Shown: positions 1,256 to 17,459 of the stretch, piece by piece
Numbering within the stretch: position 1 is the stretch's first letter
How the letters are laid out: each line of letters begins with the position of its first letter
NCBI RefSeq assembly: GCF_988243305.1
Contig: NZ_OZ547136.1
Length of the DNA stretch: 64,000 nt
Strand: one strand, 5' to 3'
Program-made: the position numbers and the translations under genes
Notes under the pieces: generated by a model
The model's input: the letters and a program-made list of their open reading frames with translations, nothing else
The model's database searches: none
Told to the model about the DNA's origin: nothing

Positions 1256-2496
<1,241 letters not shown>

Positions 2497-3020
2497 TGAA
2501 CTGCACCCCAAATGTTGGACATAATCTGACATCTGAAGGTGCAGTTTATGAAACATTCATTTGAAGTAAAACTTGCCGCTGTAAATCATTACCTGGCCGG
2601 TCATGCTGGCATCATTTCTACGGCAAAACTCTTTCAACTTTCTCACACCAGCCTCTCACACTGGATTAATCTTTTTCTTCTTCACGGTCCTCGGGCACTG
2701 GATTGCAGACACAGGCGTAGCTATTCTCCTGAAGATAAACTTTGCGTGGTTCTTTATGCTCTCGGGCATTCTGAGTCTCTACCCCGGGTAGCTGCCCGGT
2801 TTAACATTCCCAGCCACAACACGGTTAAAAACTGGATAAAAGGCTACCGCAAATCTGGTGATGAGGCCTTTATCAGGCGCAGGAAGGAGAAAAGCATGAC
2901 CCGTTCTGATGATACCCATGAAAACGAGGCAAACATGACGCCGGAAGAGATGAAGAATGAGCTGCGTTATCTTCGCGCAGAAAATGCATATCTGAAAGCC
3001 ATGCAGGAGCATCTCCTGGA

Positions 3021-3026
3021 AAAAAA

Positions 3027-3027
<1 letters not shown>
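3021..3027 (+). promoter_or_regulatory. Programmed -1 ribosomal frameshift heptamer A AAA AAG
   Basis: In orfA zero frame; the -1 frame stays open from 3027 into orfB with no stop. Confidence 0.6.
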
Positions 3028-3928
<901 letters not shown>

Positions 3929-4004: not shown

Positions 4005-5378
4005 TTAACTCCGCTTATACAGCGGCAACCAAATCACCAGCCGTAAACCGCCCAGCGGGCTGTCTTCCGCTTTAACCCAGCCACGATGCTGCTGAATGGC
4101 GGTTTCAACAATCGCCAGCCCCAAACCTGTACCGCCAGATTCACGATCGCGTGCTTCATCGGTCCGATAGAACGGACGGAAAATCTGTTCGCGATCTTCC
4201 GGGCTAACGCCAGGACCATCGTCGTCCACCGTAATGGTGATACCGTCTTTATCTACCGCAAAGCCCACTTCAATCTTCGTATGGGAATAACGCAGAGCAT
4301 TACGAACAATGTTTTCCAGCGCACTTTCCAGGGCGTTCGGATTGCCGTACAGCGGCCACGGCCCAGGCGGGAAGTTAACCATCAACGACTTGCCCATCTG
4401 CTCGGCTTCGAACGCCGCGTTATCCAGCACTTCGCCCCACAACTGGTTAGCTTTCAATGTCTCGCTTACCAGCGCGTTTTTCTGCTGATTACGTGACATC
4501 ACCAACAGATCGTTAATCATGCTGTCCAGACGTTGCGCTTCGGTTTCAATACGCTCCAGTTCCTTGCTTTCACCGCTACGACGGCGCAGTAACGCCGTAC
4601 CCAGTTGCAGACGCGTCAGCGGGGTGCGCAGCTCGTGAGAGATATCAGAAAGTAGACGCTGCTGAGAGGTCATCATGCGCTCCAGCGCGGTGACCATCTG
4701 GTTAAAACTGGCACCTGCGGCAAGGAATTCCTGTGGCCCCGCTTCCAGTTCCGGGTGCTGGCGTAAGTTTCCCTGGGCAACTTCATCGGCAGCGTTTTTC
4801 AGCTTACGCGCCGGTTTTGCCAGACTCCAGGCCAACCACAACAGCAACGGCGTACTGACCAGCATGGTGACAATCAGCAGTAATAGCGGGCGGTCAAACA
4901 GTAAGTTAATGAAATCGGATTGAGAACTGCTGGCCGGACGAATCAGATAAAGTTGGTAATTATCTTCGCCATCACGCACGGAGAACGGACCGACCAGTTC
5001 CACGCGCCCATACTTTTTCTTCTGCGGATGATCGGCGTTATCGGCCTGACCAATAAAGTTACGAATGATCTGCATTTCGCTGCGTTCAGCGCCGATCACG
5101 CGGCCTTCGGTGGTCACCAATAACAAACGCTGTCCTGGCGGTGCCCACTTATCAATCGCCCGGAACAGACGCCGCCACCACATTAAATCATTGGGCGGAT
5201 CGTTCGCCAGCTCCGCTTCGACATGCTGCTCAATCATCAGACCCTGACGCTGTTCGCTATCCAGAAGCTCGGTCATCTGGCGTGAATCGAGCTTGGGTAA
5301 CATCAAAACCAACATCAACACCAGCGCCAGCGTCAGCCAGAAGATGGCGAAGATGCGCGCGGTTAAGCTGCCTATCAT
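4005..5378 (-). CDS. cpxA: Envelope-stress sensor histidine kinase CpxA
   Basis: 457 aa; 2 TM, HAMP, HisKA (HELRTPLTRL), HATPase; overlaps cpxR stop. Confidence 0.95.
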   Translation of the reverse strand: MIGSLTARIFAIFWLTLALVLMLVLMLPKLDSRQMTELLDSEQRQGLMIEQHVEAELANDPPNDLMWWRRLFRAIDKWAPPGQRLLLVTTEGRVIGAERSEMQIIRNFIGQADNADHPQKKKYGRVELVGPFSVRDGEDNYQLYLIRPASSSQSDFINLLFDRPLLLLIVTMLVSTPLLLWLAWSLAKPARKLKNAADEVAQGNLRQHPELEAGPQEFLAAGASFNQMVTALERMMTSQQRLLSDISHELRTPLTRLQLGTALLRRRSGESKELERIETEAQRLDSMINDLLVMSRNQQKNALVSETLKANQLWGEVLDNAAFEAEQMGKSLMVNFPPGPWPLYGNPNALESALENIVRNALRYSHTKIEVGFAVDKDGITITVDDDGPGVSPEDREQIFRPFYRTDEARDRESGGTGLGLAIVETAIQQHRGWVKAEDSPLGGLRLVIWLPLYKRS

Positions 5379-6073
5379 GAAGCAGAAACCATCAGATAGC
5401 CGCGACCACGCAAGGTTTTAAACCACGGGTGACCATCTTTACGATCCGGCAGTTTACGACGCAGGTTGGAAATGTGCATATCGATAGCGCGGTCGAAAGG
5501 CGTCAGACGTTTGCCCAGCACTTCCTGGCTTAAATGTTCACGGGAAACCACCTGACCCAGATGCTGTGCCAGCAAATAGAGCAGGGTAAACTCAGTACCG
5601 GTTAACTCCAGCGTTTGCCCGTCGAAGCTGGCTTCCTGACGGCCTGGATTCAGCACTAAGGCATCAACTTCCAGTGTCGGTGAACCGTTGTCGTTGTTTT
5701 GCTGTTGCTCGCTCCAGTGCGAACGGCGCAGGATCGCGCGAATACGTGCCACCAGCTCACGATCATTAAACGGTTTCGGGAGATAGTCATCTGCGCCCAG
5801 CTCAAGGCCGAGAACGCGATCAAGTTCACTGCCGCGCGCCGTCAACATAATGACAGGCGTCTGGTGTGTCTGGCGAAGTGCTTTTAATGTGTCGATACCA
5901 TTTTTCTTCGGCATCATTACATCAAGCAAAAGTAAATCAATGCTGTCGTCCAGAAGATCAAGCGCCTGTTCCCCATCGTGGGCAACAATCACATTGAAGC
6001 CTTCCATCTCGAGCAGCTCCTTTAATAGGGAAGTCAGCTCTCGGTCATCATCAACTAACAGGATTTTATTCAT
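5375..6073 (-). CDS. cpxR: Response regulator CpxR (OmpR family)
   Basis: 232 aa, MNKILLVDDD receiver + winged-helix C-terminus. Confidence 0.95.
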   Translation of the reverse strand: MNKILLVDDDRELTSLLKELLEMEGFNVIVAHDGEQALDLLDDSIDLLLLDVMMPKKNGIDTLKALRQTHQTPVIMLTARGSELDRVLGLELGADDYLPKPFNDRELVARIRAILRRSHWSEQQQNNDNGSPTLEVDALVLNPGRQEASFDGQTLELTGTEFTLLYLLAQHLGQVVSREHLSQEVLGKRLTPFDRAIDMHISNLRRKLPDRKDGHPWFKTLRGRGYLMVSAS

Positions 6074-6128
6074 TGTTTAAATACCTCCGAGGCAGAAATT
6101 ACGTCATCAGACGTCGCTAATCCATGAC

Positions 6129-6143
6129 TTTACGTTGTTTTAC
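6129..6143 (-). promoter_or_regulatory. CpxR box GTAAA-N5-GTAAA in cpxR/cpxP divergent region
   Basis: Minus strand reads gtaaaacaacgtaaa, exact match to CpxR consensus. Confidence 0.5.
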
Positions 6144-6222
6144 ACCCCCTGACGCATGTTTGCAGCCTGAATCGTAAACTCTCTATCGTTGAATCGCGAC
6201 AGAAAGATTTTGGGAGCAAATG

Positions 6223-6723
6223 ATGCGCATAGTTACCGCTGCCGTCATGGCCTCAACGCTGGCAGTCAGTTCATTAAGCCACGCTGCTGAAGTCGGTTCA
6301 GGCGATAACTGGCATCCGGGTGAAGAACTTACGCAGCGCAGTACGCAGAGCCATATGTTCGACGGCATAAGTTTAACCGAACATCAGCGTCAGCAGATGC
6401 GAGATCTTATGCAACAGGCCCGGCACGAACAGCCTCCTGTTAATGTTAGCGAACTGGAGACAATGCATCGCCTTGTCACCGCAGAAAATTTTGATGAAAA
6501 CGCTGTGCGCGCACAGGCAGAAAAAATGGCGAATGAGCAAATTGCTCGTCAGGTTGAGATGGCAAAAGTCCGCAACCAAATGTATCGCCTGTTAACGCCG
6601 GAGCAGCAAGCGGTTTTAAACGAGAAACATCAACAACGAATGGAGCAGTTGCGCGACGTGACGCAATGGCAAAAAAGTTCATCGTTGAAGCTATTGAGTA
6701 GTAGCAACTCACGTTCCCAGTAG
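6223..6723 (+). CDS. cpxP: Periplasmic adaptor/inhibitor CpxP
   Basis: 166 aa, signal peptide then LTXXQ-type repeats; divergent from cpxR. Confidence 0.9.
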
Positions 6724-6746
6724 TAAACCCTGTTTTCCTTGCCATA

Positions 6747-6793
6747 GACACCATCCCTGTCTTCCCCCACATGATGTGGGGGTTTTTTTTATC
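6747..6793 (+). repeat. attL core of prophage (47-bp direct repeat, includes cpxP terminator hairpin)
   Basis: gacaccatccctgtcttcccccacatgatgtgggggttttttttatc identical at 6747..6793 and 38352..38398. Confidence 0.8.
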
Positions 6794-6875
6794 AATTACT
6801 TACATGCAATCAAAAGTAAAAACAGGTACTTATCGAAAGCTGTAAGGGTTTGGAGCGGTTTCAAAATTTCTTGAG

Positions 6876-6894
6876 TGTGGACACTATGTGGACA
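6876..6894 (+). promoter_or_regulatory. Candidate Int arm-type binding sites (tandem TGTGGACA)
   Basis: tgtggacactatgtggaca near attL; similar tgtggacgctatgtggaca near attR at 38285..38303. Confidence 0.4.
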
Positions 6895-6909
6895 TTCAGA
6901 GGGGGAAAT

Positions 6910-7920
6910 TTATAACGTCACTCCGCCTTTTAGTGGATTCAGAGCGACGGCATTTTGCAGATAGTCAGGCGCAAGGTGCGCATAGGCCATCGTCTGCTGA
7001 ATGCTCGCATGTCCCAGAATCTGTTGCAGTGCGATTATATTGCCCCCATTCATCATGAAATGGCTTGCGAATGTATGCCGCAGGATGTGGGTTGCCTGAT
7101 TGGGTGGTATATCAGGTTTCACTCTGCGTAAAATCCCGCAAAATTTCTCATAATCAACTTTGAATAATTTGGCGCTGGCCTCCTCTTTAACTTTTTTCTC
7201 CAGTTCCTCAGAAATCGGCACGGTTCGCTTTTTACCGTTTTTGGTTTTCAGGAAGGTAACCCTGCAATTTGTAATCTGTGCTGGTTTTAGCGTGGCAACT
7301 TCCGTCCATCTTCCTCCGGTGCTCAGACATAAAAGCGCGACAAGTAAGTCATCACCAGCCAAAACATTTAACAGTTTTTCGATTTCTGCTTTTTCCAGGA
7401 ACGTCATTTCAGGGTTGGCCTCCGCCAGTGGCGGCAGTCCGTGAATTGGGTGTTGCCCGGAAAATTCATCCAATTGAATTAATTTTGTGAACATGCCGGA
7501 TAATCGGTACATGTCACGGTTTATCGTTGCGGCACTGATACCATCACGTAGTCGCATGGAACGATAATCCATCAAAGCCCTTTTGCTCATCCTGCTCACT
7601 GGTATATCACCTATGCCGCTGATGGTTTTGAGTAGATGATTAAACTCTTTTGTTCCATGCTCGTGGTTTTGCCCGTGATATTTCCACCAGATGTCCAGCA
7701 ACTCACTCAAAGTCCGGCGGTCTGCTCGCTGGCCTCCCCATTCTTTCTGACTGGCATTGGCGATTGTGTATCGCTCAAATGCTAGTGCTTCAGCTTTTCT
7801 TTCGAATTTCCTGCGGATGCGTTTTCCGTCGCGACCGCGAGGTCTAATGTCCACTTCATAGCGACCATCATCGAGCTTCTTAATTGCCATAAGAAAGCCC
7901 TCCGGCGCTGTATTCACCAT
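6910..7920 (-). CDS. int: P2-type tyrosine integrase
   Basis: 336 aa, adjacent to attL, C-terminal R..H..R..Y catalytic-domain pattern (HILRHTFASH...AYAHL). Confidence 0.9.
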   Translation of the reverse strand: MVNTAPEGFLMAIKKLDDGRYEVDIRPRGRDGKRIRRKFERKAEALAFERYTIANASQKEWGGQRADRRTLSELLDIWWKYHGQNHEHGTKEFNHLLKTISGIGDIPVSRMSKRALMDYRSMRLRDGISAATINRDMYRLSGMFTKLIQLDEFSGQHPIHGLPPLAEANPEMTFLEKAEIEKLLNVLAGDDLLVALLCLSTGGRWTEVATLKPAQITNCRVTFLKTKNGKKRTVPISEELEKKVKEEASAKLFKVDYEKFCGILRRVKPDIPPNQATHILRHTFASHFMMNGGNIIALQQILGHASIQQTMAYAHLAPDYLQNAVALNPLKGGVTL

Positions 7921-7959
7921 CTTGGTAGCAAATGGTAAAAATGTAATCTTTATATAGAG

Positions 7960-8253
7960 TTAGCCAATCCTTTTCGCGGAGTGGTTGGACTCTGTTGACT
8001 CTGGCCCAATGTGCGCGAGAGCCGGTGCGATTTGTCCTGCGTCCGGCGCGGTTTTATCTGTCATAAGCCATAGAGCATATTTTTGGAATGTGGGATGCAT
8101 AGTGATTTTTAGCAAAGCTGTGCCACCGGGTTCAAAGTTTCCTCCTTCATATTTTTTAAGTGTGCTTAGCGGTAACTCTATGATTTCACAGAATTTTGAT
8201 TGGCTTAGCCCTTCAGCCTCACGCAAGGCCTTAATCTTTTCGCTTAATTTCAT
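7960..8253 (-). CDS. P2 C-type immunity repressor
   Basis: 97 aa HTH protein; C-terminal QIAPALAH motif as in P2 C; divergent from cox. Confidence 0.8.
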   Translation of the reverse strand: MKLSEKIKALREAEGLSQSKFCEIIELPLSTLKKYEGGNFEPGGTALLKITMHPTFQKYALWLMTDKTAPDAGQIAPALAHIGPESTESNHSAKRIG

Positions 8254-8264
8254 TTGACATGGTG

Positions 8265-8308
8265 CCTATATAGGGACTAAATTCCCTCAAAACTGGAACC
8301 TATATAGG
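8265..8308 (+). promoter_or_regulatory. Candidate early operator: two CCTATATAGG palindromic 10-mers in C/cox divergent region
   Basis: cctatatagg at 8265..8274 and 8299..8308; TTGACA at 8254..8259. Confidence 0.35.
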
Positions 8309-8374
8309 TTCCATTGATTTGAGAATAAACCAGCATCTAAACGGTTTTGAGTGGTTTAGAAAGGGCTGGATCCT

Positions 8375-8662
8375 ATGAGGGTACCATATATGGACGCTGA
8401 AAATTATGTGATTCAGTATCCGCTTGATGCGGTTCATGTGGATAAATTTGCTGATTTATTAGGGAAGCCAAAGACAGCCGTCAGTGAAATGGTGAAGGCA
8501 AATAAATTACCAATTATTGAATTGCGTGATCCTTGCAAACCGAAGGCTCGTGCCGGTGAAAAATGGGTTTTCATTCCTGAGTTTAATCGCGCTGTACGTG
8601 AGGCGTTTTATAACCGACCGGTTGAACAGCGTGATGCATGGCTTTTGTGGATGGGGTTGTGA
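8375..8662 (+). CDS. cox: Cox-like excisionase/transcriptional switch
   Basis: 95 aa, position and similarity to P2 Cox (…LPIIELRDP…AGEKWVFIP…RDAWLLWMGL). Confidence 0.7.
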   Translation: MRVPYMDAENYVIQYPLDAVHVDKFADLLGKPKTAVSEMVKANKLPIIELRDPCKPKARAGEKWVFIPEFNRAVREAFYNRPVEQRDAWLLWMGL

Positions 8663-10146: not shown

Positions 10147-10418
10147 GTATTCGTATTGAAATTGGCGAACGTTATGTCGTTACCAGTGACAGCTTTCAGT
10201 TTATTCTCCACGAGAAAAAGAGAGCGGAAAGCGGTAAAAACGCCGGTCAGGAATGGCTGGCGGTGGTTGGTTATTACCCGAAATTAGGCCAGCTCGTTTC
10301 CGGCCTGATGCATCACGATATTCTGACCGGAAGCGCAAAATCTTTTGCTGATTTAAACGCGCAGGTTGAGCAACTCAGCAAGCGTTGTTCAGAGGCTTTT
10401 GGCTCATATGGCCGTTAA
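10143..10418 (+). CDS. Hypothetical early protein
   Basis: 91-aa ORF overlapping gene A start. Confidence 0.45.
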   Translation: MSIRIEIGERYVVTSDSFQFILHEKKRAESGKNAGQEWLAVVGYYPKLGQLVSGLMHHDILTGSAKSFADLNAQVEQLSKRCSEAFGSYGR

Positions 10419-12684
10419 AGCCTCCGGGCGTTTTGTCCCTCCGTCAGCATTTACCGCAGGCACCGGTAAGGCGTTTACCGGTGCTTATGCATGGAACGCG
10501 CCACGCGAGGATGTCGGGCGCGAAAGACCTCTTACACGTGACGAGATGCGTCAGGTGCAAGGTGTTTTATCCACGATTAACCGCCTGCCTTACTTTTTGC
10601 GCTCGCTGTTTACTTCACGCTATGACTACATCCGGCGCAATAAAAGCCCGGTGCACGGGTTTTATTTCCTCACATCTACTTTTCAGCGTCGTTTATGGCC
10701 GCGCATTGAGCGTGTGAATCAGCGCCATGAAATGAACACCGACGCGTCGTTGCTGTTTCTGGCAGAGCGTGACCACTATGCGCGCCTGCCGGGAATGAAT
10801 GACAAGGAGCTGAAAAAGTTTGCCGCCCGTATCTCATCGCAGCTTTTCATGATGTATGAGGAACTCTGCGATGCATGGGTTGATGCGCATGGTGAAAAAG
10901 AATCGCTGTTTACGGATGAGGCGCAGGCTCACCTGTATGGTCATGTTGCTGGCGCTGCACGTGCTTTCAATATTTCCCCGCTCTACTGGAAAAAATACCG
11001 TAAAGGACAGATGACCACGAGGCAGGCATATTCTGCCATTGCCCGCCTGTTTAACGATGAGTGGTGGATTCATCAGCTTAAAGGCCAGCGTATGCGCTGG
11101 CATGAGGCGTTACTGATAGCTGTCGGGGAGGTCAATAAAGACCGTTCTCCTTATGCCAGTAAACACGCCATTCGTGATGTGCGTGCGCGCCGCCAGGCAA
11201 ATCTGGAATTTCTTAAATCGTGTGACCTTGAAAACAGGGAAACCGGCGAGCGCATCGACCTTATCAGTAAGGTGATGGGCAGTATTTCTAATCCTGAAAT
11301 TCGCCGGATGGAGCTGATGAACACCATTGCCGGTATTGAGCGTTACGCCGCCGCAGAGGGTGATGTGGGGATGTTTATCACGCTGACCGCGCCGTCAAAG
11401 TATCACCCGACACGTCAGGTCGGAAAAGGCGAAAGTAAAACCGTTCAGCTTAATCACGGCTGGAACGATGAGGCATTTAATCCAAAGGATGCGCAGCGTT
11501 ATCTCTGCCGTATCTGGAGCCTGATGCGCACGGCATTCAAGGATAATGATTTACAGGTCTACGGTTTGCGAGTCGTCGAGCCACACCACGACGGAACGCC
11601 GCACTGGCATATGATGCTTTTTTGTCATCCACGCCAGCGTAACCAGATTATCGAAATCATGCGTCGCTATGCGCTCAAAGAGGATGGCGACGAAAGAGGA
11701 GCCGCGCGAAACCGTTTTCAGGCAAAACACCTTAACCGGGGCGGTGCTGCGGGATATATCGCGAAATACATTTCAAAAAACATCGACGGCTATGCACTGG
11801 ATGGTCAGCTCGATAACGACACCGGCAGGCCGCTGAAAGACACTGCAGCGGCTGTTACCGCATGGGCGTCAACGTGGCGCATTCCGCAATTTAAAACGGT
11901 TGGCCTGCCGACAATGGGGGCTTACCGTGAACTACGCAAATTGCCTCGCGGCGTCAGCATTGCTGATGAGTTTGACGAGCGCGTCGAGGCTGCACGCGCC
12001 GCCGCAGACGGTGGTGATTTTGCGCTGTATATCAGCGCGCAGGGCGGGGCAAATGTCCCGCGCGATTGTCAGACTGTCAGGGTCGCCCGTAGTCTGTCGG
12101 ATGACGTTAACGAGTACGAGGAAGAAGTCGAGAGAGTGGTCGGCATTTACGCGCCGCATCTCGGCGCGCGTCATATTCATATCACCAGAACGACGGACTG
12201 GCGCATTGTGCCGAAAGTTCCGGTCGTTGAGCCTTTGACTTTAAAAAGCGGCATCGCCGCGCCTCGGAGTCCTGTCAATAACTGTGGAAAGCTCACCGGT
12301 GGTGATACTTCGTTACCGGCTCCCACACCTTCTGAGCACGCCGCAGCAGTGCTTAATCTGGTTGATGACGATGTTATCGAATGGAATGACCCGGAGGTCG
12401 TGAGGGCGCTCAGGGGCGCATTAAAACACGACCGGAGAACGCCAAACCGTCAGCAAAGAAACGGAAGCCCGTTAAAACCGCATGAAATTGCACCATCGGC
12501 CAGACTGACCCGGTCGGAACGATTGCAAATTACCCGTATCCGCGTTGATCTCGCTCAGAACGGTATCAGGCCGCAACGATGGGAGCTTGAGGCGCTGGCG
12601 CGTGGCGCGACCGTAAATTATGACGGGAAACCTTTCACTTATCAGGTCGCTGATGATTGGCCGGGATTTTTGTTACCCATTTGA
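10408..12684 (+). CDS. P2 gpA-type rolling-circle replication initiator endonuclease
   Basis: ~758 aa from ATG 10408 (ORF-track frame opens 10366); HxH and tyrosine-containing motifs (PHHDGTPHWHMMLF, AGYIAKYISKN). Confidence 0.85.
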   Translation: MAVKASGRFVPPSAFTAGTGKAFTGAYAWNAPREDVGRERPLTRDEMRQVQGVLSTINRLPYFLRSLFTSRYDYIRRNKSPVHGFYFLTSTFQRRLWPRIERVNQRHEMNTDASLLFLAERDHYARLPGMNDKELKKFAARISSQLFMMYEELCDAWVDAHGEKESLFTDEAQAHLYGHVAGAARAFNISPLYWKKYRKGQMTTRQAYSAIARLFNDEWWIHQLKGQRMRWHEALLIAVGEVNKDRSPYASKHAIRDVRARRQANLEFLKSCDLENRETGERIDLISKVMGSISNPEIRRMELMNTIAGIERYAAAEGDVGMFITLTAPSKYHPTRQVGKGESKTVQLNHGWNDEAFNPKDAQRYLCRIWSLMRTAFKDNDLQVYGLRVVEPHHDGTPHWHMMLFCHPRQRNQIIEIMRRYALKEDGDERGAARNRFQAKHLNRGGAAGYIAKYISKNIDGYALDGQLDNDTGRPLKDTAAAVTAWASTWRIPQFKTVGLPTMGAYRELRKLPRGVSIADEFDERVEAARAAADGGDFALYISAQGGANVPRDCQTVRVARSLSDDVNEYEEEVERVVGIYAPHLGARHIHITRTTDWRIVPKVPVVEPLTLKSGIAAPRSPVNNCGKLTGGDTSLPAPTPSEHAAAVLNLVDDDVIEWNDPEVVRALRGALKHDRRTPNRQQRNGSPLKPHEIAPSARLTRSERLQITRIRVDLAQNGIRPQRWELEALARGATVNYDGKPFTYQVADDWPGFLLPI

Positions 12685-12942
12685 GTAAAAATACAGCGTG
12701 ATTTTATATGTCTTTGAATGGATTATGCGAAACACCTCTAAGGTAGATGAGGAGCAATAGCGTGTTGAATCAGAAGGCTAAATTGTATTGAATCGTTAGC
12801 ATGTAATTGAAGGCAGCTATTTGATTCGAGTCATAAAAGAGCATCTATTTCGGTTAATAAAACCATTGCGAGTGACTTTATGTCGAAGCATAATTCATCT
12901 CGAGCGAAGTCTTGCTAGTCTTTCATCGGATTGATGACGGGC

Positions 12943-12975
12943 GCAAAAAAACCACCCTGGCAGGTGGTTTTTTTG
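12943..12975. terminator. Bidirectional rho-independent terminator
   Basis: A-run, accacc-ctggca-ggtggt hairpin, T-run. Confidence 0.5.
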
Positions 12976-12986
12976 TTTGAAGCATA

Positions 12987-13100
12987 CTAAAGAAAAATAC
13001 TTACATGGATATTACTGACGTTTACTGACAAACCACTCGGACTACCATATGGATAGCCAAAGAGGGCCAGAACGAGAATGCAGTAATAGCACTTCTTCAT
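12987..13100 (-). CDS. Hypothetical 37-aa hydrophobic peptide (MKKCYYCILVLALFGYPYGSPSGLSVNVSNIHVSIFL)
   Basis: ATG with AGGAGG 5-10 nt upstream; terminator immediately downstream on the same strand. Confidence 0.3.
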   Translation of the reverse strand: MKKCYYCILVLALFGYPYGSPSGLSVNVSNIHVSIFL

Positions 13101-13822
13101 ATCGCCTCCTGTAAGCAGAGGGCAATTTCCGCCGATATATGCGCTTCTAAGGCGGAGTGACTATTGAGCGAAGTCTTGCCCTGAAATAATGCTCTGTTTA
13201 AACGCAAAGTGATCTGGCATATCACCGAACAGAGGACCTGAACAACACAACATATAGTATGTCGTTGTTTCTGGTTGCATTTTATGTTGTGTAATACTGG
13301 TTTTGCATCAAGGATGTTTGAGCTTTTTTTGATATAGCTCAAAGTAAAAAGCAGAGACTACGGATGATAAGGTCTTGAAAGCAATGTAAATTTTTTAAAG
13401 TTGTGAGTGGCTAGAAATGCACAGTTTCAATATGGCGGATTTAAACAAGTAATTAAAAATAGCGACACAAATTCCAATAAAATCATTAAGTTGCGTTTTC
13501 TGTGGAAACTTCGGTGACTCTGAAATTTTCTTTTAGTATCGCTGAGGTTTAACAACTCGCTGCGCAAGTAGTTAGTGTTTTTTTTAACTCAATATTCTGA
13601 TTTATAAGGTTTTTTATAAATCGTGGGCTGGTTGCGCATATTCATCTCGTGTTATCAGCAAAGATAAGCTCTATATGCAGAACTGAATGCATATATGATG
13701 TCGAAAATGTTATGGGAAAACGTGGATTAGTGTTATAGTAATGGCTGAAAAACAGCCTTGACATAAAATAACAACTGTGATATGGCTGTGCATACTTAAC
13801 TTTTTTAACGTAGGAGGCAACC

Positions 13823-14308
13823 ATGAGCTATGCAGCTAAAAAACTGCTTGACCGCTATTGGGATCGCCGACTACCTGTCGATCCGTTTAAGCTTGCTAAA
13901 GCGTGGGGTGCTCGTGTTGAAGCACTTGAGGAATCGGCTTATAACAACGATGGGTTAAGCGGTCTGGCTGTCATCAAAAAGGGTGTCCATAGGATTTATT
14001 TTGATTCTAGTGAACATTCTAATCGTCAACGTTTTACTGTTGCACACGAGTTAGGTCATCATGTGCTGGGGCATACCCAGGACGGAGAGTACCATCGGGA
14101 TAATGTCGGGAATTATTCAACAGGTGCTCGTGATTACCGTGAGGTTGAAGCAAACAAGTTTGCTGCTGAGTTGTTAATGCCTGAGTCTGCTATACGTCAA
14201 TTGGTATCCAGAGAAGGTATTGATAGCACTTTGAGATTAGCAAGCATCTTTAATGTATCAGAAGCCGCTATGCATTGGCGCTTAAAGAGCTTAGGAATGG
14301 CTTATTAA
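13823..14308 (+). CDS. ImmA/IrrE-family HEXXH zinc metallopeptidase-like protein (161 aa)
   Basis: HELGHHVLGH plus downstream E (FAAELLMPE); AGGAGG SD; promoter-like TTGACA at 13761; AT-rich cargo. Confidence 0.75.
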   Translation: MSYAAKKLLDRYWDRRLPVDPFKLAKAWGARVEALEESAYNNDGLSGLAVIKKGVHRIYFDSSEHSNRQRFTVAHELGHHVLGHTQDGEYHRDNVGNYSTGARDYREVEANKFAAELLMPESAIRQLVSREGIDSTLRLASIFNVSEAAMHWRLKSLGMAY

Positions 14309-14374
14309 TTAGCCTTTAACTTTTAACCTGTTTAAAATCACCTTTACGTTTGTACATGTAAGGGTGATTTTTTT

Positions 14375-14974
14375 ATGGCTGATATTGATTTATCTGGACA
14401 GTCCCCAGAGCAAGGAACCACTCCTAAGGGCGATTTAGATCCTGATATCCTTATAAGGCGAGATAGACGGGATGGTATAGAGCGTAGAAGTATGCGATTA
14501 GTGCTCTCTGCCGTTGTGCTTTGTTTTGCTTGTACATTTCTATGGCAGGGGCTTAACTTTGCTTTGGCTGTTGGAAATGGCTTGCTGGAAGCGAAAAGCA
14601 GTATTGCCGCAGCGATAACACAAAAAGTAGATACACAAACTTGTGTTTCAGCAGAAAAATGTTCTGCTTTATCTTCGGATCCGAAGATGGCTGATGAGAG
14701 GATAACACCATCTTCAGACACTAATAAAGTTAGAAAATCTATTTCTGGTTTATCCACCGATTGGTTATCGGCCAGTTCTCTAATAGCTATTGTTGCATTC
14801 ATCCTTGGTGTGGGTTTAACTTTGCTTTTGACTCTTCTTAAATCAGCATTTCAACACCCGACAGATAAAGACTTTAGAACAAAGTCGACATCTAATACTA
14901 TTGAGTTGGCCACGCCAATCAGTGAATTAATAATTGGTGTTCTGAATATAATTAAAGACAAACTATCTAAGTAA
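14375..14974 (+). CDS. Hypothetical membrane protein, two predicted TM helices (199 aa)
   Basis: Hydrophobic segments ~res 40-66 and 130-155; start codon sits in T-run of upstream terminator hairpin. Confidence 0.6.
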   Translation: MADIDLSGQSPEQGTTPKGDLDPDILIRRDRRDGIERRSMRLVLSAVVLCFACTFLWQGLNFALAVGNGLLEAKSSIAAAITQKVDTQTCVSAEKCSALSSDPKMADERITPSSDTNKVRKSISGLSTDWLSASSLIAIVAFILGVGLTLLLTLLKSAFQHPTDKDFRTKSTSNTIELATPISELIIGVLNIIKDKLSK

Positions 14975-15056
14975 AGCATTAGTTGTGATTTTTTATTGGT
15001 TTTAGTGATAATACATCTCCAGTACTTATTGTTACTGGAGAGTATTTTTAGTCGTT

Positions 15057-15998
15057 TTATATTTTTAATGTTAGTGAATGATATTCACGAGAGTTCACGT
15101 TCGATGTGATGTAATCGGGGGCGTTAACACCAAGAATCGCAACGAGTAATCGGCAAATTAAAGCCTGCATTTGTTGTAATATGTCATCTCCATATTGATA
15201 ATTGTTAATAGTGGTAAAGCCAAGTGGTTGACCATGAAACATAGCTTCATGAAAGTTTTCATTGCGGATGTTTGTAATGTTTTTTTTACCTGTAACCCAT
15301 GATGGTCGTGGTATTCCATAAGTTTTGCAGATCCACTTCAAGCGCCTGGAGTGATTTAGAGTCTTTTCTGTACACTTGTTCTTTTCTGCCCATGTTAAAG
15401 CAAAGCAACTATCCAGTGCCATATAAAGATACTGGAATTTTTCGAAGCTAAGGTATTGTGGGTTTTGGGATAAAAATAGTGCATGCACTATTGCTGCTAT
15501 ATTTATTGGTGCGTGTTTGGTTTTTGTCTCGCTAGACATGTATTTGAGTGCTAATTCTATAACCTCTTTTTCAGAGCACTTGACCAGAATAAAGTCAGTT
15601 AATTTGCTGGGTTTTATTGGGGTTGCGTCTAAAAAACCGGCATCAGTAGTTGTTAATCTTATCCCTTTGAAAAAAGACAGACACCACACAGCAAAATTGA
15701 GAGTTTCTAGTGAAGATGTATTTTTTAATTTTAGTGAGTGTGTTTTGGGTAAGCCAAATACTCGTTGGCTAAAAGGCATTGTGGATATGCCTCCATTGAG
15801 GTTATATACTTCTTGGTTTCCTGGGTATATCCAACCGTTAATAACATTTCTGTGATTGTTTATAAGATTTGTTTTTTCCGCTAGACCGGGTAAAGTAAGT
15901 AAAGAAAAATCATCAGTTTCAACGTTAACTTCTACTGGATAGTATCCAAACTCAGCTTCAATATCATTGGATTGCTGTTCGTCAACTTTACCTTGCAT
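15057..15998 (-). CDS. Hypothetical protein, 313 aa, unknown function (candidate phage-exclusion effector)
   Basis: Long ORF in AT-rich DNA (sampled lines roughly 35-40% GC vs >50% flanks), GGAG SD, convergent with membrane-protein gene; R-x4-H at ~245-250. Confidence 0.65.
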   Translation of the reverse strand: MQGKVDEQQSNDIEAEFGYYPVEVNVETDDFSLLTLPGLAEKTNLINNHRNVINGWIYPGNQEVYNLNGGISTMPFSQRVFGLPKTHSLKLKNTSSLETLNFAVWCLSFFKGIRLTTTDAGFLDATPIKPSKLTDFILVKCSEKEVIELALKYMSSETKTKHAPINIAAIVHALFLSQNPQYLSFEKFQYLYMALDSCFALTWAEKNKCTEKTLNHSRRLKWICKTYGIPRPSWVTGKKNITNIRNENFHEAMFHGQPLGFTTINNYQYGDDILQQMQALICRLLVAILGVNAPDYITSNVNSREYHSLTLKI

Positions 15999-16236
15999 AC
16001 ATTGCTCCGGTCAAAAATAGGCTCGATAATTCTCGTAAGCCTATCATGTTCGCAAAGTATCCATACCTGTGGATTTTGTAAATTTAAGTTGATTTGTCAT
16101 TAAATAAGCCGTTGCATGCAACAAGTGAATGTTTTTGCATGCGTCGGGGATGTCCGTTCAGGCTGCGTGCGGTCAGGACTGGTGCGGATCCATAGTATCT
16201 ATGCAACTGCATTAAAACCGCCCCATGAAGCGGGCG

Positions 16237-16255
16237 GGCGAGGCGGGGAAAGCAC
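16237..16255 (+). other. Phage cos site (19-nt cohesive end GGCGAGGCGGGGAAAGCAC)
   Basis: Matches recalled P2 cohesive-end sequence; located between cargo island and portal gene. Confidence 0.6.
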
Positions 16256-16395
16256 TGCGCGCTGGCGGTGGTGCTGATTTTATTTTTTCAGCGTCTCAGC
16301 GCGTCGTGACGGCGTTTGGATTGTGCGCCGGGGCGTTGGTGTGTCTGTGGGGTGTTTTGTGCGGTGGTGAGCGTGTGAGGGCGTGATGACGGGGT

Positions 16396-16420
16396 GTAAA
16401 AAAGCCGCCCGCAGGCGGCG
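16396..16420 (-). terminator. Rho-independent terminator downstream of portal gene
   Basis: gccgcc-cgca-ggcggc hairpin followed by T-run on minus strand. Confidence 0.45.
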
Positions 16421-16424
16421 ATGT

Positions 16425-17459
16425 TCAGCCGTTGTCGGTGTCCAGTGAGTAGTTTTTAAAGCGGATGACCTCCTGACCGAGCCAGCCGTTTATCTCGCGG
16501 ATCCTGTCCTGTAACGGGATAAGCTCATTGCGGACAAAGACCTTTGCCACTTTCTCAATATCACCCAGCGACCCGACGTTCTCCGGCTTGCCGCCCATCA
16601 ACTGAAAAGGGATGCGGTGCGCGTCCAGCAGGTCTGCGGCGCTGGCTTTTTTGATATTAAAAAAATCGTCCTTCGTTGCCACTTCACTGAGCGGGATAAT
16701 TTTAATGCCGTCGGCTTTCCCTTGCGGGGCATAGAGAAACAGATTTTTAAAGTTGTTGCGGCCTTTCGACTTCACCATGTTTTCGCGGAGCATTTCGATA
16801 TCGTTGCGATCCTGCACGGCATCAGTGACGTACATGATGTATCCGGCATGTGCGCCGTTTTCGTAATACTTGCGGCGGAACAGCGTGGCCGACTCATTCA
16901 GCCAGGCAGAGTTAAGGGCGCTGAGATATTCCGGCAGGCCATACAGCTCCTGATTAATATCCGGCTCCAGCAGGTGAAACACGGAGCCGGGCGCGAAAGG
17001 TGTCGGCTCATGGAAGGACGGCACCCACCAGTAAACATCCTCTTCCACGCCACGGCGGGTATATTTTGCCGGTGAGGTTTCCAGTCTGATGACCTTACCG
17101 GTGGTGCTGTAACGCTTTTCCAGAAACGCATTACCGAACACCAGAAAATCCAGCACAAAGCGGCTGAAATCCTGCTGGGAAAGCCACGGGTGCGGAATAA
17201 ACGTTGAAGCCAGAATATTACGTTTGACGTAAATCGGTGAGCTGTGATGTACGGCAGCACGCAGGCTTTTTGCCAGACCGGTAAAGCTGACCGGTGGCTC
17301 ATACCATCTGCCGTTACTGATGCACTCGACGTAATCCAGAATGTCACGGCGGTCGAGTACCGGCACCGGTTCACCAAAGGTGAATGCCTCCATTTTCGGG
17401 GCGCTGGCGGTCATTTTTTTTGCCGCAGGTTGCGGTGTTTTCCCTTTTTTCTTGCTCAT
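16425..17459 (-). CDS. Portal protein (P2 gpQ)
   Basis: 344 aa, P2 order and size. Confidence 0.9.
   Translation of the reverse strand: MSKKKGKTPQPAAKKMTASAPKMEAFTFGEPVPVLDRRDILDYVECISNGRWYEPPVSFTGLAKSLRAAVHHSSPIYVKRNILASTFIPHPWLSQQDFSRFVLDFLVFGNAFLEKRYSTTGKVIRLETSPAKYTRRGVEEDVYWWVPSFHEPTPFAPGSVFHLLEPDINQELYGLPEYLSALNSAWLNESATLFRRKYYENGAHAGYIMYVTDAVQDRNDIEMLRENMVKSKGRNNFKNLFLYAPQGKADGIKIIPLSEVATKDDFFNIKKASAADLLDAHRIPFQLMGGKPENVGSLGDIEKVAKVFVRNELIPLQDRIREINGWLGQEVIRFKNYSLDTDNG

Follow-up and report, generated by a model that had tools for sequence, protein, structure and literature searches.

The interval between gpA and gpQ of P2-like prophages was surveyed by Rousset et al. (2022) in 18,150 E. 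coli loci (PMC9122126). In Table S5B of that survey, system #11 is a 313-residue protein alone (218 occurrences, no domain) and system #21 is a Peptidase_M78 protein with a "2 TM" protein (148 occurrences), and the catalogue gives neither a function (PMC9122126). Here we analyze the DNA between gpA and cos of a P2-like prophage in a stretch of 64,000 nucleotides (NCBI RefSeq assembly GCF_988243305.1, contig NZ_OZ547136.1), which we refer to as the window and number from its first letter. This slot holds both units: an ImmA/IrrE-type peptidase gene followed by a gene for a protein with two transmembrane segments (the 2-TM protein), and a convergent gene for a 313-residue protein (ORF313). Compared with the entries of systems #11 and #21, the window proteins show identities of 99.7%, 100% and 98.1%.

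The described systems closest to these units are ApeA and RosmerTA. ApeA is a validated single-gene defense system that cleaves tRNA (Gao et al. 2020; bioRxiv 10.64898/2026.01.26.701840, 10.64898/2026.03.20.713152). Ec1ApeA (WP_000706972) and Ec2ApeA are proteins of about 600 residues that form decamers and comprise three domains, namely a helical N-terminal domain, a Mid domain and a split HEPN domain with insertions. ApeA has a pocket between its N-terminal domain and its HEPN domain through which it is activated, the ligand in Ec2ApeA being a 5'-phosphorylated deoxydinucleotide, and it then cuts tRNA anticodon loops; Ec1ApeA cuts the genomes of single-stranded RNA phages as well. In RosmerTA, the antitoxin RmrA has an ImmA-type protease domain while the toxins vary (Millman 2022; Ernits 2023, PMC10440598), and a helix-turn-helix (HTH) domain is frequent but not universal in RmrA (Ernits 2023, PMC10440598). 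The toxin of the RosmerTA system of Gordonia phage Kita is membrane-localized and depolarizing, and this system protects against only two BASEL phages (PMC10440598).

Our analysis favors, at a probability of roughly 55%, a model in which the slot is a stack of mobile modules composed of ORF313 as an ApeA-like HEPN ribonuclease, the peptidase and the 2-TM protein as a RosmerTA-like pair, and a separate segment next to gpA. Two elements of this model go beyond the published catalogue, namely the placing of ORF313 in a short ApeA-like HEPN class and the description of system #21 as a terminator-gated operon of an HTH-less peptidase and a membrane protein.

Content of the slot

The slot and its main features are as follows.

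10366..12684, + strand: gpA, 772 residues, left edge of the slot
12685-13822, no strand: region without a long open reading frame (ORF), 1138 bp
13823..14308, + strand: ImmA/IrrE-type Zn metallopeptidase (Peptidase_M78), 161 residues, peptidase domain only
14375..14974, + strand: 2-TM membrane protein, 199 residues, hydrophobic windows at about residues 38-65 and 129-160
15016-15041, no strand: bidirectional terminator-like hairpin with a 9-bp stem between the convergent 2-TM gene and ORF313, from a scan of both strands
15057..15998, - strand: ORF313, 313 residues, N-terminal alpha/beta domain and C-terminal HEPN domain, convergent to the 2-TM gene
16238-16256, no strand: cos core GGCGAGGCGGGGAAAGCAC, read in the sequence, right edge of the cargo slot
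16425..17459, - strand: gpQ (portal), followed by the terminase gene

The gpA-cos interval spans about 3.5 kb with a G+C content of 34-46% in 400-nt windows, compared to 51-59% on either side. By feature, the G+C content is 0.375 in the left intergenic part, 0.444 in the peptidase gene, 0.398 in the 2-TM gene and 0.365 in ORF313, compared to 0.537 in gpA and 0.529 in gpQ. Composition and ORF content thus bear out the initial annotation, made from the sequence alone, in its description of about 3.5 kb of AT-rich foreign DNA, and the assignment of this DNA to the known P2 A-cos hotspot agrees with the survey of Rousset et al. (PMC9122126). The gene content is also as described there (a peptidase, a 2-TM protein, a convergent 313-residue ORF and a 37-residue hydrophobic ORF), and neither of the P2 genes tin and old is present in the slot. 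As for the signals ascribed to the island, inspection of the sequence does reveal Shine-Dalgarno motifs and terminators, but promoters do not rise above chance, with 13 sigma-70-like matches in a scan of the island versus 9.4 +/- 3.2 in shuffled sequences. Rfam gave only sub-threshold matches in 12500-16500, and these weak matches are driven by a terminator hairpin at 12943-12975. PADLOC calls no complete system on the island, consistent with the earlier failure to match it to a named defense system; the system cannot be called undescribed, however, as both units are in Table S5B as separate entries.

The sequence flanking cos in the window is also present in cloned sequences of Rousset Table S2A. 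Rst_3HP, the validated "hp + hp + hp" system of the same survey, was considered as the identity of the island and rejected because its proteins are different; the PADLOC matches are to capP, RmrA and related peptidase models only, and the published Rst_3HP proteins were judged unlike those of the island by eye only.

Separate exchange of the modules

The island is a stack of independently exchanged cargo, which is ordinary for this hotspot. The whole island is found at >=99% identity in about 45 complete E. coli genomes that represent one clonal arrangement, and ORF313 alleles at 75-79% nucleotide identity are found in about 49 other complete E. coli genomes. The three examined alleles of the latter type are without the peptidase/2-TM pair and have as neighbors a DinI-like gene or DUF2158 plus ORF226. 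Among 46 IMG/VR loci with an ORF313 relative, eight are of the window type, one is a diverged trio and 37 are without the pair. In the diverged trio, which lies on a P2-like contig (L081, the same contig as L035), the peptidase, the 2-TM protein and ORF313 are 88%, 58% and 49% identical to those of the window, and this 49%-identical ORF313 allele is also the sole cargo beside gpA in two further loci (L082 and L083). ORF313 in P2-like loci is always cos-proximal and read towards gpA. Its relatives outside P2 are likewise lone genes, in prophage-like or recombinase-flanked settings. At least 1000 E. coli and Salmonella contigs encode the identical protein.

The pair, in turn, occurs without ORF313 in 10 of 12 distinct lineages. 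These include OU784750, E. coli O121, E. coli OHT76-1 and IMG/VR contigs with P2-type or 186-type gpA. Outside P2, the pair is present on a plasmid of Enterobacter, in an Acinetobacter baumannii element and in a Vibrio harveyi element that has serine recombinase genes on its flanks. Loci L001/L007, L008, L032-34, L036-37 and L039 are among those without ORF313. Moreover, the pair and ORF313 are convergent, with the bidirectional terminator between them. The proposal that these genes form one system that travels as a unit is difficult to reconcile with the 37 of 46 ORF313 loci that lack the pair and the 10 of 12 pair lineages that lack ORF313. Because the P2 slot stacks several modules, annotation pipelines should not take a gene combination in this slot for a single system.

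ORF313 and its relation to ApeA

An exhaustive search recovered an ORF313 family of 456 cluster representatives, nearly all of about 300 residues. In an alignment of 71 sequences with 24-48% identity to the window protein, G112, E186, R245, H250 and G260 are invariant and N246 and E251 are conserved in >=90%, giving the motif RNxxxHE, which contains the HEPN motif Rx4-6H. The AlphaFold (AF2) model of ORF313 (predicted local distance difference test (pLDDT) 93.5; predicted TM-score (pTM) 0.91) has an alpha/beta domain at residues ~13-140 and a helical domain at residues ~143-300. Thus, both features of the HEPN superfamily, the alpha-helical HEPN fold and the Rx4-6H motif, are found in ORF313. 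A Foldseek search of AFDB50 with the model returned neighbors of about 300 residues named "Apea-like HEPN" (E 1e-36 to 1e-11, TM-score 0.8-0.94), some neighbors of this length being named "ApeA N-terminal domain-containing" by UniProt, as well as "ApeA N-terminal domain" proteins of 420-496 residues (E 1e-4 to 1e-5, TMq ~0.45-0.53). ORF313 had been taken for an orphan; a family of 456 representatives, the HEPN fold with its catalytic motif and AFDB neighbors labeled Apea-like speak otherwise. When the 71 alignment members were scanned singly, none matched Pfam HEPN_Apea, so the "Apea" names of UniProt are not reproduced by this profile; precomputed Pfam annotation likewise lists nothing for 120 ORF313 relatives.

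Similarly to ApeA, ORF313 is single-gene cargo on mobile elements, has a C-terminal HEPN domain with an RNxxxH type motif (RNKITH in Ec1ApeA, RNENFH in ORF313) and a non-catalytic N-terminal part, and has AFDB neighbors that UniProt calls "Apea-like HEPN" or "ApeA N-terminal domain". Unlike the characterized ApeA proteins with their three domains and about 600 residues, ORF313 has two domains in 313 residues, and its top AFDB neighbors are absent from the first of the two parts of the published list of ApeA homologs. Unlike HepT of HepT/MntA, ORF313 is without an MNT antitoxin partner, and unlike HepT, AbiV and the C-terminal domain of AbiA, it has an additional N-terminal alpha/beta domain, with sequence identities of only 10-13%. 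We suggest that ORF313 would work like ApeA as a short, divergent HEPN RNase variant that is not a member of the ApeA family.

A search of PDB sequences with the ORF313 family profile gave matches of residues ~2-55 (15834-15995, - strand) to bacterial ryanodine-receptor (RyR) repeat domains. These matches are marginal (best E 0.007, others 0.3-0.8) and perhaps due to chance, and an RyR identity of the N-terminus was not adopted. ORF313 was reportedly first named by Odegrip in 2006, in P2-EC67. The name is present in the GenBank record of P2-EC67 (AM157369); every source lists the protein as hypothetical, and we found no report of a functional test.

The peptidase/2-TM pair

The peptidase has its best PADLOC match to capP (1e-30), spanning positions 8-153 of the 242-position profile, and matches 14 RmrA profiles, the best at 6e-17 over positions 146-267 of a 363-position profile, as well as the phrog_87 metalloprotease family (1e-32). 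All PADLOC and PHROGs matches are confined to the peptidase part. H75, E76 and H79 of the HELGH motif as well as E107 are invariant among 12 paired peptidase sequences, consistent with an intact catalytic site. The 161 residues contain no HTH domain, no cysteine and no C-terminal CapP/IrrE domain, all 13 homologs have similar lengths of 158-164 residues, and an XRE-type HTH gene is adjacent to the peptidase gene in none of 13 loci (the window and 12 others).

The 2-TM protein has no match in Pfam, NCBIfam or PADLOC (E <= 1) and matches phrog_8096, a family of unknown function, and no other described family. Relatives occur only in Enterobacterales, Vibrio and Acinetobacter, and its gene is directly 3' of the peptidase gene at every locus examined. 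The second transmembrane segment (TM2, AFILGVGLTL) is nearly invariant, with a mean column identity of 0.81, and the C-terminal helix is conserved too, in contrast to the hypervariable inter-helix loop (0.28), which varies in length and contains CX5C in enterobacterial members but not in those of Vibrio and Acinetobacter. The N-terminal 39 residues, MA(D/E)IDLSGQSP...DPDIL(I/L)RR, are conserved across diverged alleles, which argues for the ATG at 14375 as the true start. The published start (MRLVLS..., Rousset Table S5B #21 and several 160-residue GenBank entries) is probably 39 codons short (14375-14491).

Between the two genes lies a spacer of 66 nt that closes with the following element.

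14334..14374, + strand: terminator-like hairpin and U-tract, 16-bp stem, T run ending at the ATG of the 2-TM gene

The only Shine-Dalgarno-like bases before the 2-TM gene (GGGTGA) lie in the 3' arm of this hairpin. A hairpin with a U-tract precedes the 2-TM gene in 12 of 13 pair loci; its stem sequence in the Vibrio locus (L019) and in L039 is unrelated to the others, and 7 of 15 consensus stem pairs are changed on both sides. As judged from these alignments, the hairpin is conserved with compensatory changes. It should keep the 2-TM protein scarce relative to the peptidase, as would be expected if the membrane protein were harmful. The peptidase and the 2-TM protein together constitute a conserved two-gene operon.

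An inverted repeat (GGCTGAAAAACAGCC, 13743-13765) abuts a TTGACA hexamer ~60 nt upstream of the peptidase start. The ~60 nt around 13743-13765 are the only upstream stretch in common with the otherwise different locus L008 (88% identity), and the repeat together with TTGACA may be an operator or promoter element. On the Enterobacter plasmid (L016; 1948-3316 and 4445-6545), the pair has a zeta-toxin/AAA_33 gene and a DprA-like gene nearby and is followed by a 304-residue ORF without a known domain, in what looks like a small addiction/defense cluster.

The segment beside gpA

The remaining part of the island contains the following features.

12785..13400, no strand: conserved gpA-proximal segment, ~0.6 kb, without annotation in RefSeq (PGAP) E. 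coli records
12943-12975, no strand: bidirectional terminator-like hairpin (AAAAAAACCACCCTGGCAGGTGGTTTTTTT, as read in the sequence), 3' of gpA and of the 37-residue ORF
12987..13100, - strand: 37-residue hydrophobic ORF (MKKCYYCILVLALFGYP...) with a GGAGG Shine-Dalgarno sequence

The segment is 94-100% identical between the window and OU784750, above the identity of the adjoining peptidase gene. Of 5426 complete E. coli genomes, 149 have the segment, three times the ~49 that have the peptidase. Counterparts lie at 4501-5106 in L023 and at 4501-5116 in L024. The cos region comes immediately after the segment in KO11FL and ESBLEC_HM50, and the cargo of these prophages (an AAA ATPase and the retron Ec48, respectively) sits on the gpQ side of cos. 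Because the segment lies next to differing cargo, we regard it as a lineage-conserved neighbor of gpA and not as cargo; it is a separate conserved unit, independent of the downstream cargo. The 1.1 kb that had been described as non-coding DNA are indeed without a long ORF but consist mostly of this conserved segment, which is also found beside unrelated cargo.

The hairpin at 12943-12975 is identical across all four aligned loci. The 37-residue ORF has remained intact in four loci, and third codon positions account for most of its substitutions (3/0/7 at positions 1/2/3 in L023). Its exact sequence is found on ~970 contigs, where some annotations call it as a gene, and in the phage collection it occurs in near-identical segments only. 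The minus-strand RNA from 13390 to 12940 folds better than shuffled controls (z = -3.0). A hydrophobic ORF this small, preceded by a structured leader, is reminiscent of type I toxins, and it might be a type-I-toxin-like small gene. A known toxin family was rejected as its identity, with no family match in PHROGs or NCBIfam, and an 81-residue ORF overlapping its start (13097..13342, - strand) was judged non-coding, with five amino acid changes between the window and L001.

P2-like prophages with cargo between cos and gpQ carry an AAA ATPase, the retron Ec48 or a methyltransferase plus a DUF262/HNH-like gene. The cos-flank sites are at ~5000-5160 in L023, ~5010-5170 in L024, ~4700-7400 in L037 and 16108-16260 in the window. 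As some prophages have their cargo on the gpQ side of cos, the hotspot has two slots flanking cos, and L037 fills both, one on each side.

A model for the modules and its alternatives

For ORF313, our model starts from its fold, its catalytic motif, its mobility as a single gene and its prophage and mobile-element context. We infer its RNase activity, trigger, target and defense phenotype as those of a stand-alone ApeA-like HEPN ribonuclease. The N-terminal alpha/beta domain would be the sensor, and two copies of the protein would pair their HEPN domains to form one composite active site, as in HEPN proteins in general. By analogy to ApeA, ORF313 would be inactive until infection is sensed and, once activated, would cut tRNA anticodon loops or phage RNA, thereby stopping phage growth. 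For the pair, the model builds on the conserved adjacency of its genes in distant elements, the intact catalytic site, the absence of an HTH and the conserved hairpin. We suggest that it would work like a RosmerTA module, with toxicity, neutralization and a role in defense by analogy: the 2-TM protein would be a toxic effector that acts by membrane depolarization or via a pore built from the invariant TM2, with the peptidase serving as antitoxin or controller, and the hairpin ending at the 2-TM start codon would sequester the ribosome-binding bases and hold down expression. The ~0.6 kb beside gpA would form the separate conserved segment with its terminator and the 37-residue ORF. In agreement with this model, an ImmA/M78 peptidase gene adjoins a small membrane-protein gene on phages and mobile elements in RosmerTA as well, and the window peptidase matches RmrA profiles (6e-17) with the catalytic HEXXH and E107 invariant.

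Several observations weigh against the model. In the case of ORF313, Foldseek found nothing significant in the PDB, NCBIfam and Pfam gave no match, the PADLOC ApeA model matched neither ORF313 nor five relatives (E = 0 for Ec1ApeA, the query sequence of which was taken from an E. coli genome), and hhalign of the ORF313 family against a 17-sequence Ec1ApeA alignment gave E = 0.1 over 18 motif columns only. Because of these failed sequence tests, we file ORF313 as ApeA-like and not as an ApeA member. As for the pair, the peptidase lacks the N-terminal XRE-type HTH typical of RmrA and the 2-TM protein matches no RmrT model (PADLOC, E <= 1), which places the pair outside RosmerTA on defining details; a terminator hairpin between the two genes is a further difference from RosmerTA. 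An AF2 prediction for a peptidase-(GGGGS)6-TM fusion from a 12-row paired alignment had low confidence (pLDDT 62) and was uninformative on contact. A homologous "Peptidase + TM" cassette of E. coli TA280, carried on pFR104 under its native promoter, gave no protection against eight phages, among them lambda, P1, T4 and T7, and is listed as not validated (Table S2B, PMC9122126), and the clone was evidently not toxic. The tested allele is that of TA280 and not that of the window (peptidase 87.6% and 2-TM protein 56.7% identical), and given the narrow spectra of RosmerTA, with two BASEL phages as an example, the negative test is weak evidence against defense. The trio co-occurs twice (the window type and L035/L081), more than expected from background frequencies of ~1%. 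Finally, the defense role of ORF313 and of the pair is drawn from analogy.

The two co-occurrences of the trio leave a small probability for functional synergy, and we consider it very improbable that the three proteins are one integrated, undescribed defense system in which, for instance, the pair senses or regulates and ORF313 is the effector. The joint presence of the trio in 45 complete E. coli genomes and eight IMG/VR contigs (>=99% identity), and once more in the diverged contig, is what such a system would predict; the many loci with only one of the two units, including the diverged ORF313 allele alone beside gpA and the pair outside P2, the convergent genes with the terminator between them and the separate listing of the units by Rousset et al. 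are not. In phage 186, the tum antirepressor gene lies between A and cos. The peptidase might act as an anti-repressor in the manner of ImmA/ImmR or CapP/CapH and as a functional analog of 186 Tum, cleaving an XRE-type repressor such as the prophage C protein, with prophage induction or the switching on of nearby genes as the outcome and the 2-TM protein as an accessory. ImmA-family proteins canonically cleave XRE-type repressors, the window peptidase belongs to the same family and has the same catalytic motif as those of ImmA/ImmR, IrrE/DdrO and CapP/CapH, its best PADLOC match is capP (1e-30), and the C repressor (7960..8253, - strand) has an XRE-type HTH. Nevertheless, we regard an anti-repressor as distinctly improbable. 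Unlike those three systems, the pair has no adjacent HTH substrate gene in the 13 loci, its peptidase is without a cysteine and a C-terminal CapP/IrrE domain and covers only part of the capP profile (8-153 of 242), and its partner is a membrane protein, the strict pairing with which would be left unexplained. Moreover, in contrast to ImmA/ImmR and CapP/CapH, a scan of 12601-16400 gave no link to the SOS response, with no CTG-N10-CAG and no 20-mer above 13/20 to the LexA consensus. Three peptidase-bearing prophages have three different C alleles, so that coupling of the peptidase to one immunity type was rejected, some such prophages have a 186-type gpA (35% identity), and the pair is also found on a plasmid and non-P2 elements.

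Alternatively, instead of a toxin-antitoxin system, the pair could be a module for envelope sensing or superinfection exclusion, with the periplasmic loop contacting phage components and the cytoplasmic peptidase transducing or resetting the signal in a split BlaR1 arrangement. The poorly conserved, length-variable loop with its CX5C between a conserved TM2 and C-terminal helix fits this idea, as do the termini of the 2-TM protein, both predicted to be cytoplasmic from the charged residues before TM1. The absence of CX5C in Vibrio and Acinetobacter members, the lack of protection by the TA280 homolog against lambda, P1, T4, T7 and others, and a terminator right before the 2-TM start, which suits a dose-limited toxin better than a constitutive surface blocker, make it rather unlikely. 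We rate as similarly unlikely that the cargo has no anti-phage role and consists of selfish addiction or stabilization modules or host-fitness morons in a recombination hotspot. P2 hotspots also carry partition systems (about a quarter of them) and cdt toxin genes (about 2%; PMC9122126), so not all of this cargo is defense, the TA280 pair tested negative, and the pair on the large Enterobacter plasmid is beside a zeta-toxin gene, where addiction would make sense; lone HEPN RNases with an N-terminal sensor domain in prophage hotspots are, however, typical defense proteins. It is tempting to speculate, although we think it unlikely, that the pair is a new abortive or defense switch and that ORF313 separately represents a half-size "mini-ApeA" class with a compact N-terminal sensor. 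In such a switch, a pore-forming 2-TM protein would be silenced by the terminator and Shine-Dalgarno-sequestering hairpin at its start codon and released by read-through on infection or by peptidase processing of its cytoplasmic tails, while the hypervariable periplasmic loop would set specificity.

Under the favored model of stacked mobile modules, the HEPN/ApeA-like assignment makes the function of ORF313, which ranks 11th in frequency among E. coli P2-hotspot cargo (218 loci in the Rousset survey), directly testable. If active, ORF313 would be a minimal ApeA-type sensor-RNase that is useful for understanding how such proteins are triggered. Likewise, the peptidase/2-TM operon, with its range from Enterobacterales to Vibrio and Acinetobacter, would be a case for ImmA-type control of membrane toxins without an HTH.

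Surroundings of the prophage

Outside the slot, the window contains the following features.

1305..2285: insertion sequence (IS) transposase, 326 residues
2539..3896: IS3-like two-ORF unit
6910..7920: int of the P2-like prophage
7960..8253: C
8375..8662: cox

The two IS-type transposase regions (1305-3896) lie upstream of cpxA-cpxR-cpxP, and the P2-like prophage is integrated beside cpxP (4005-8662), as in E. coli OHT76-1 (L041).

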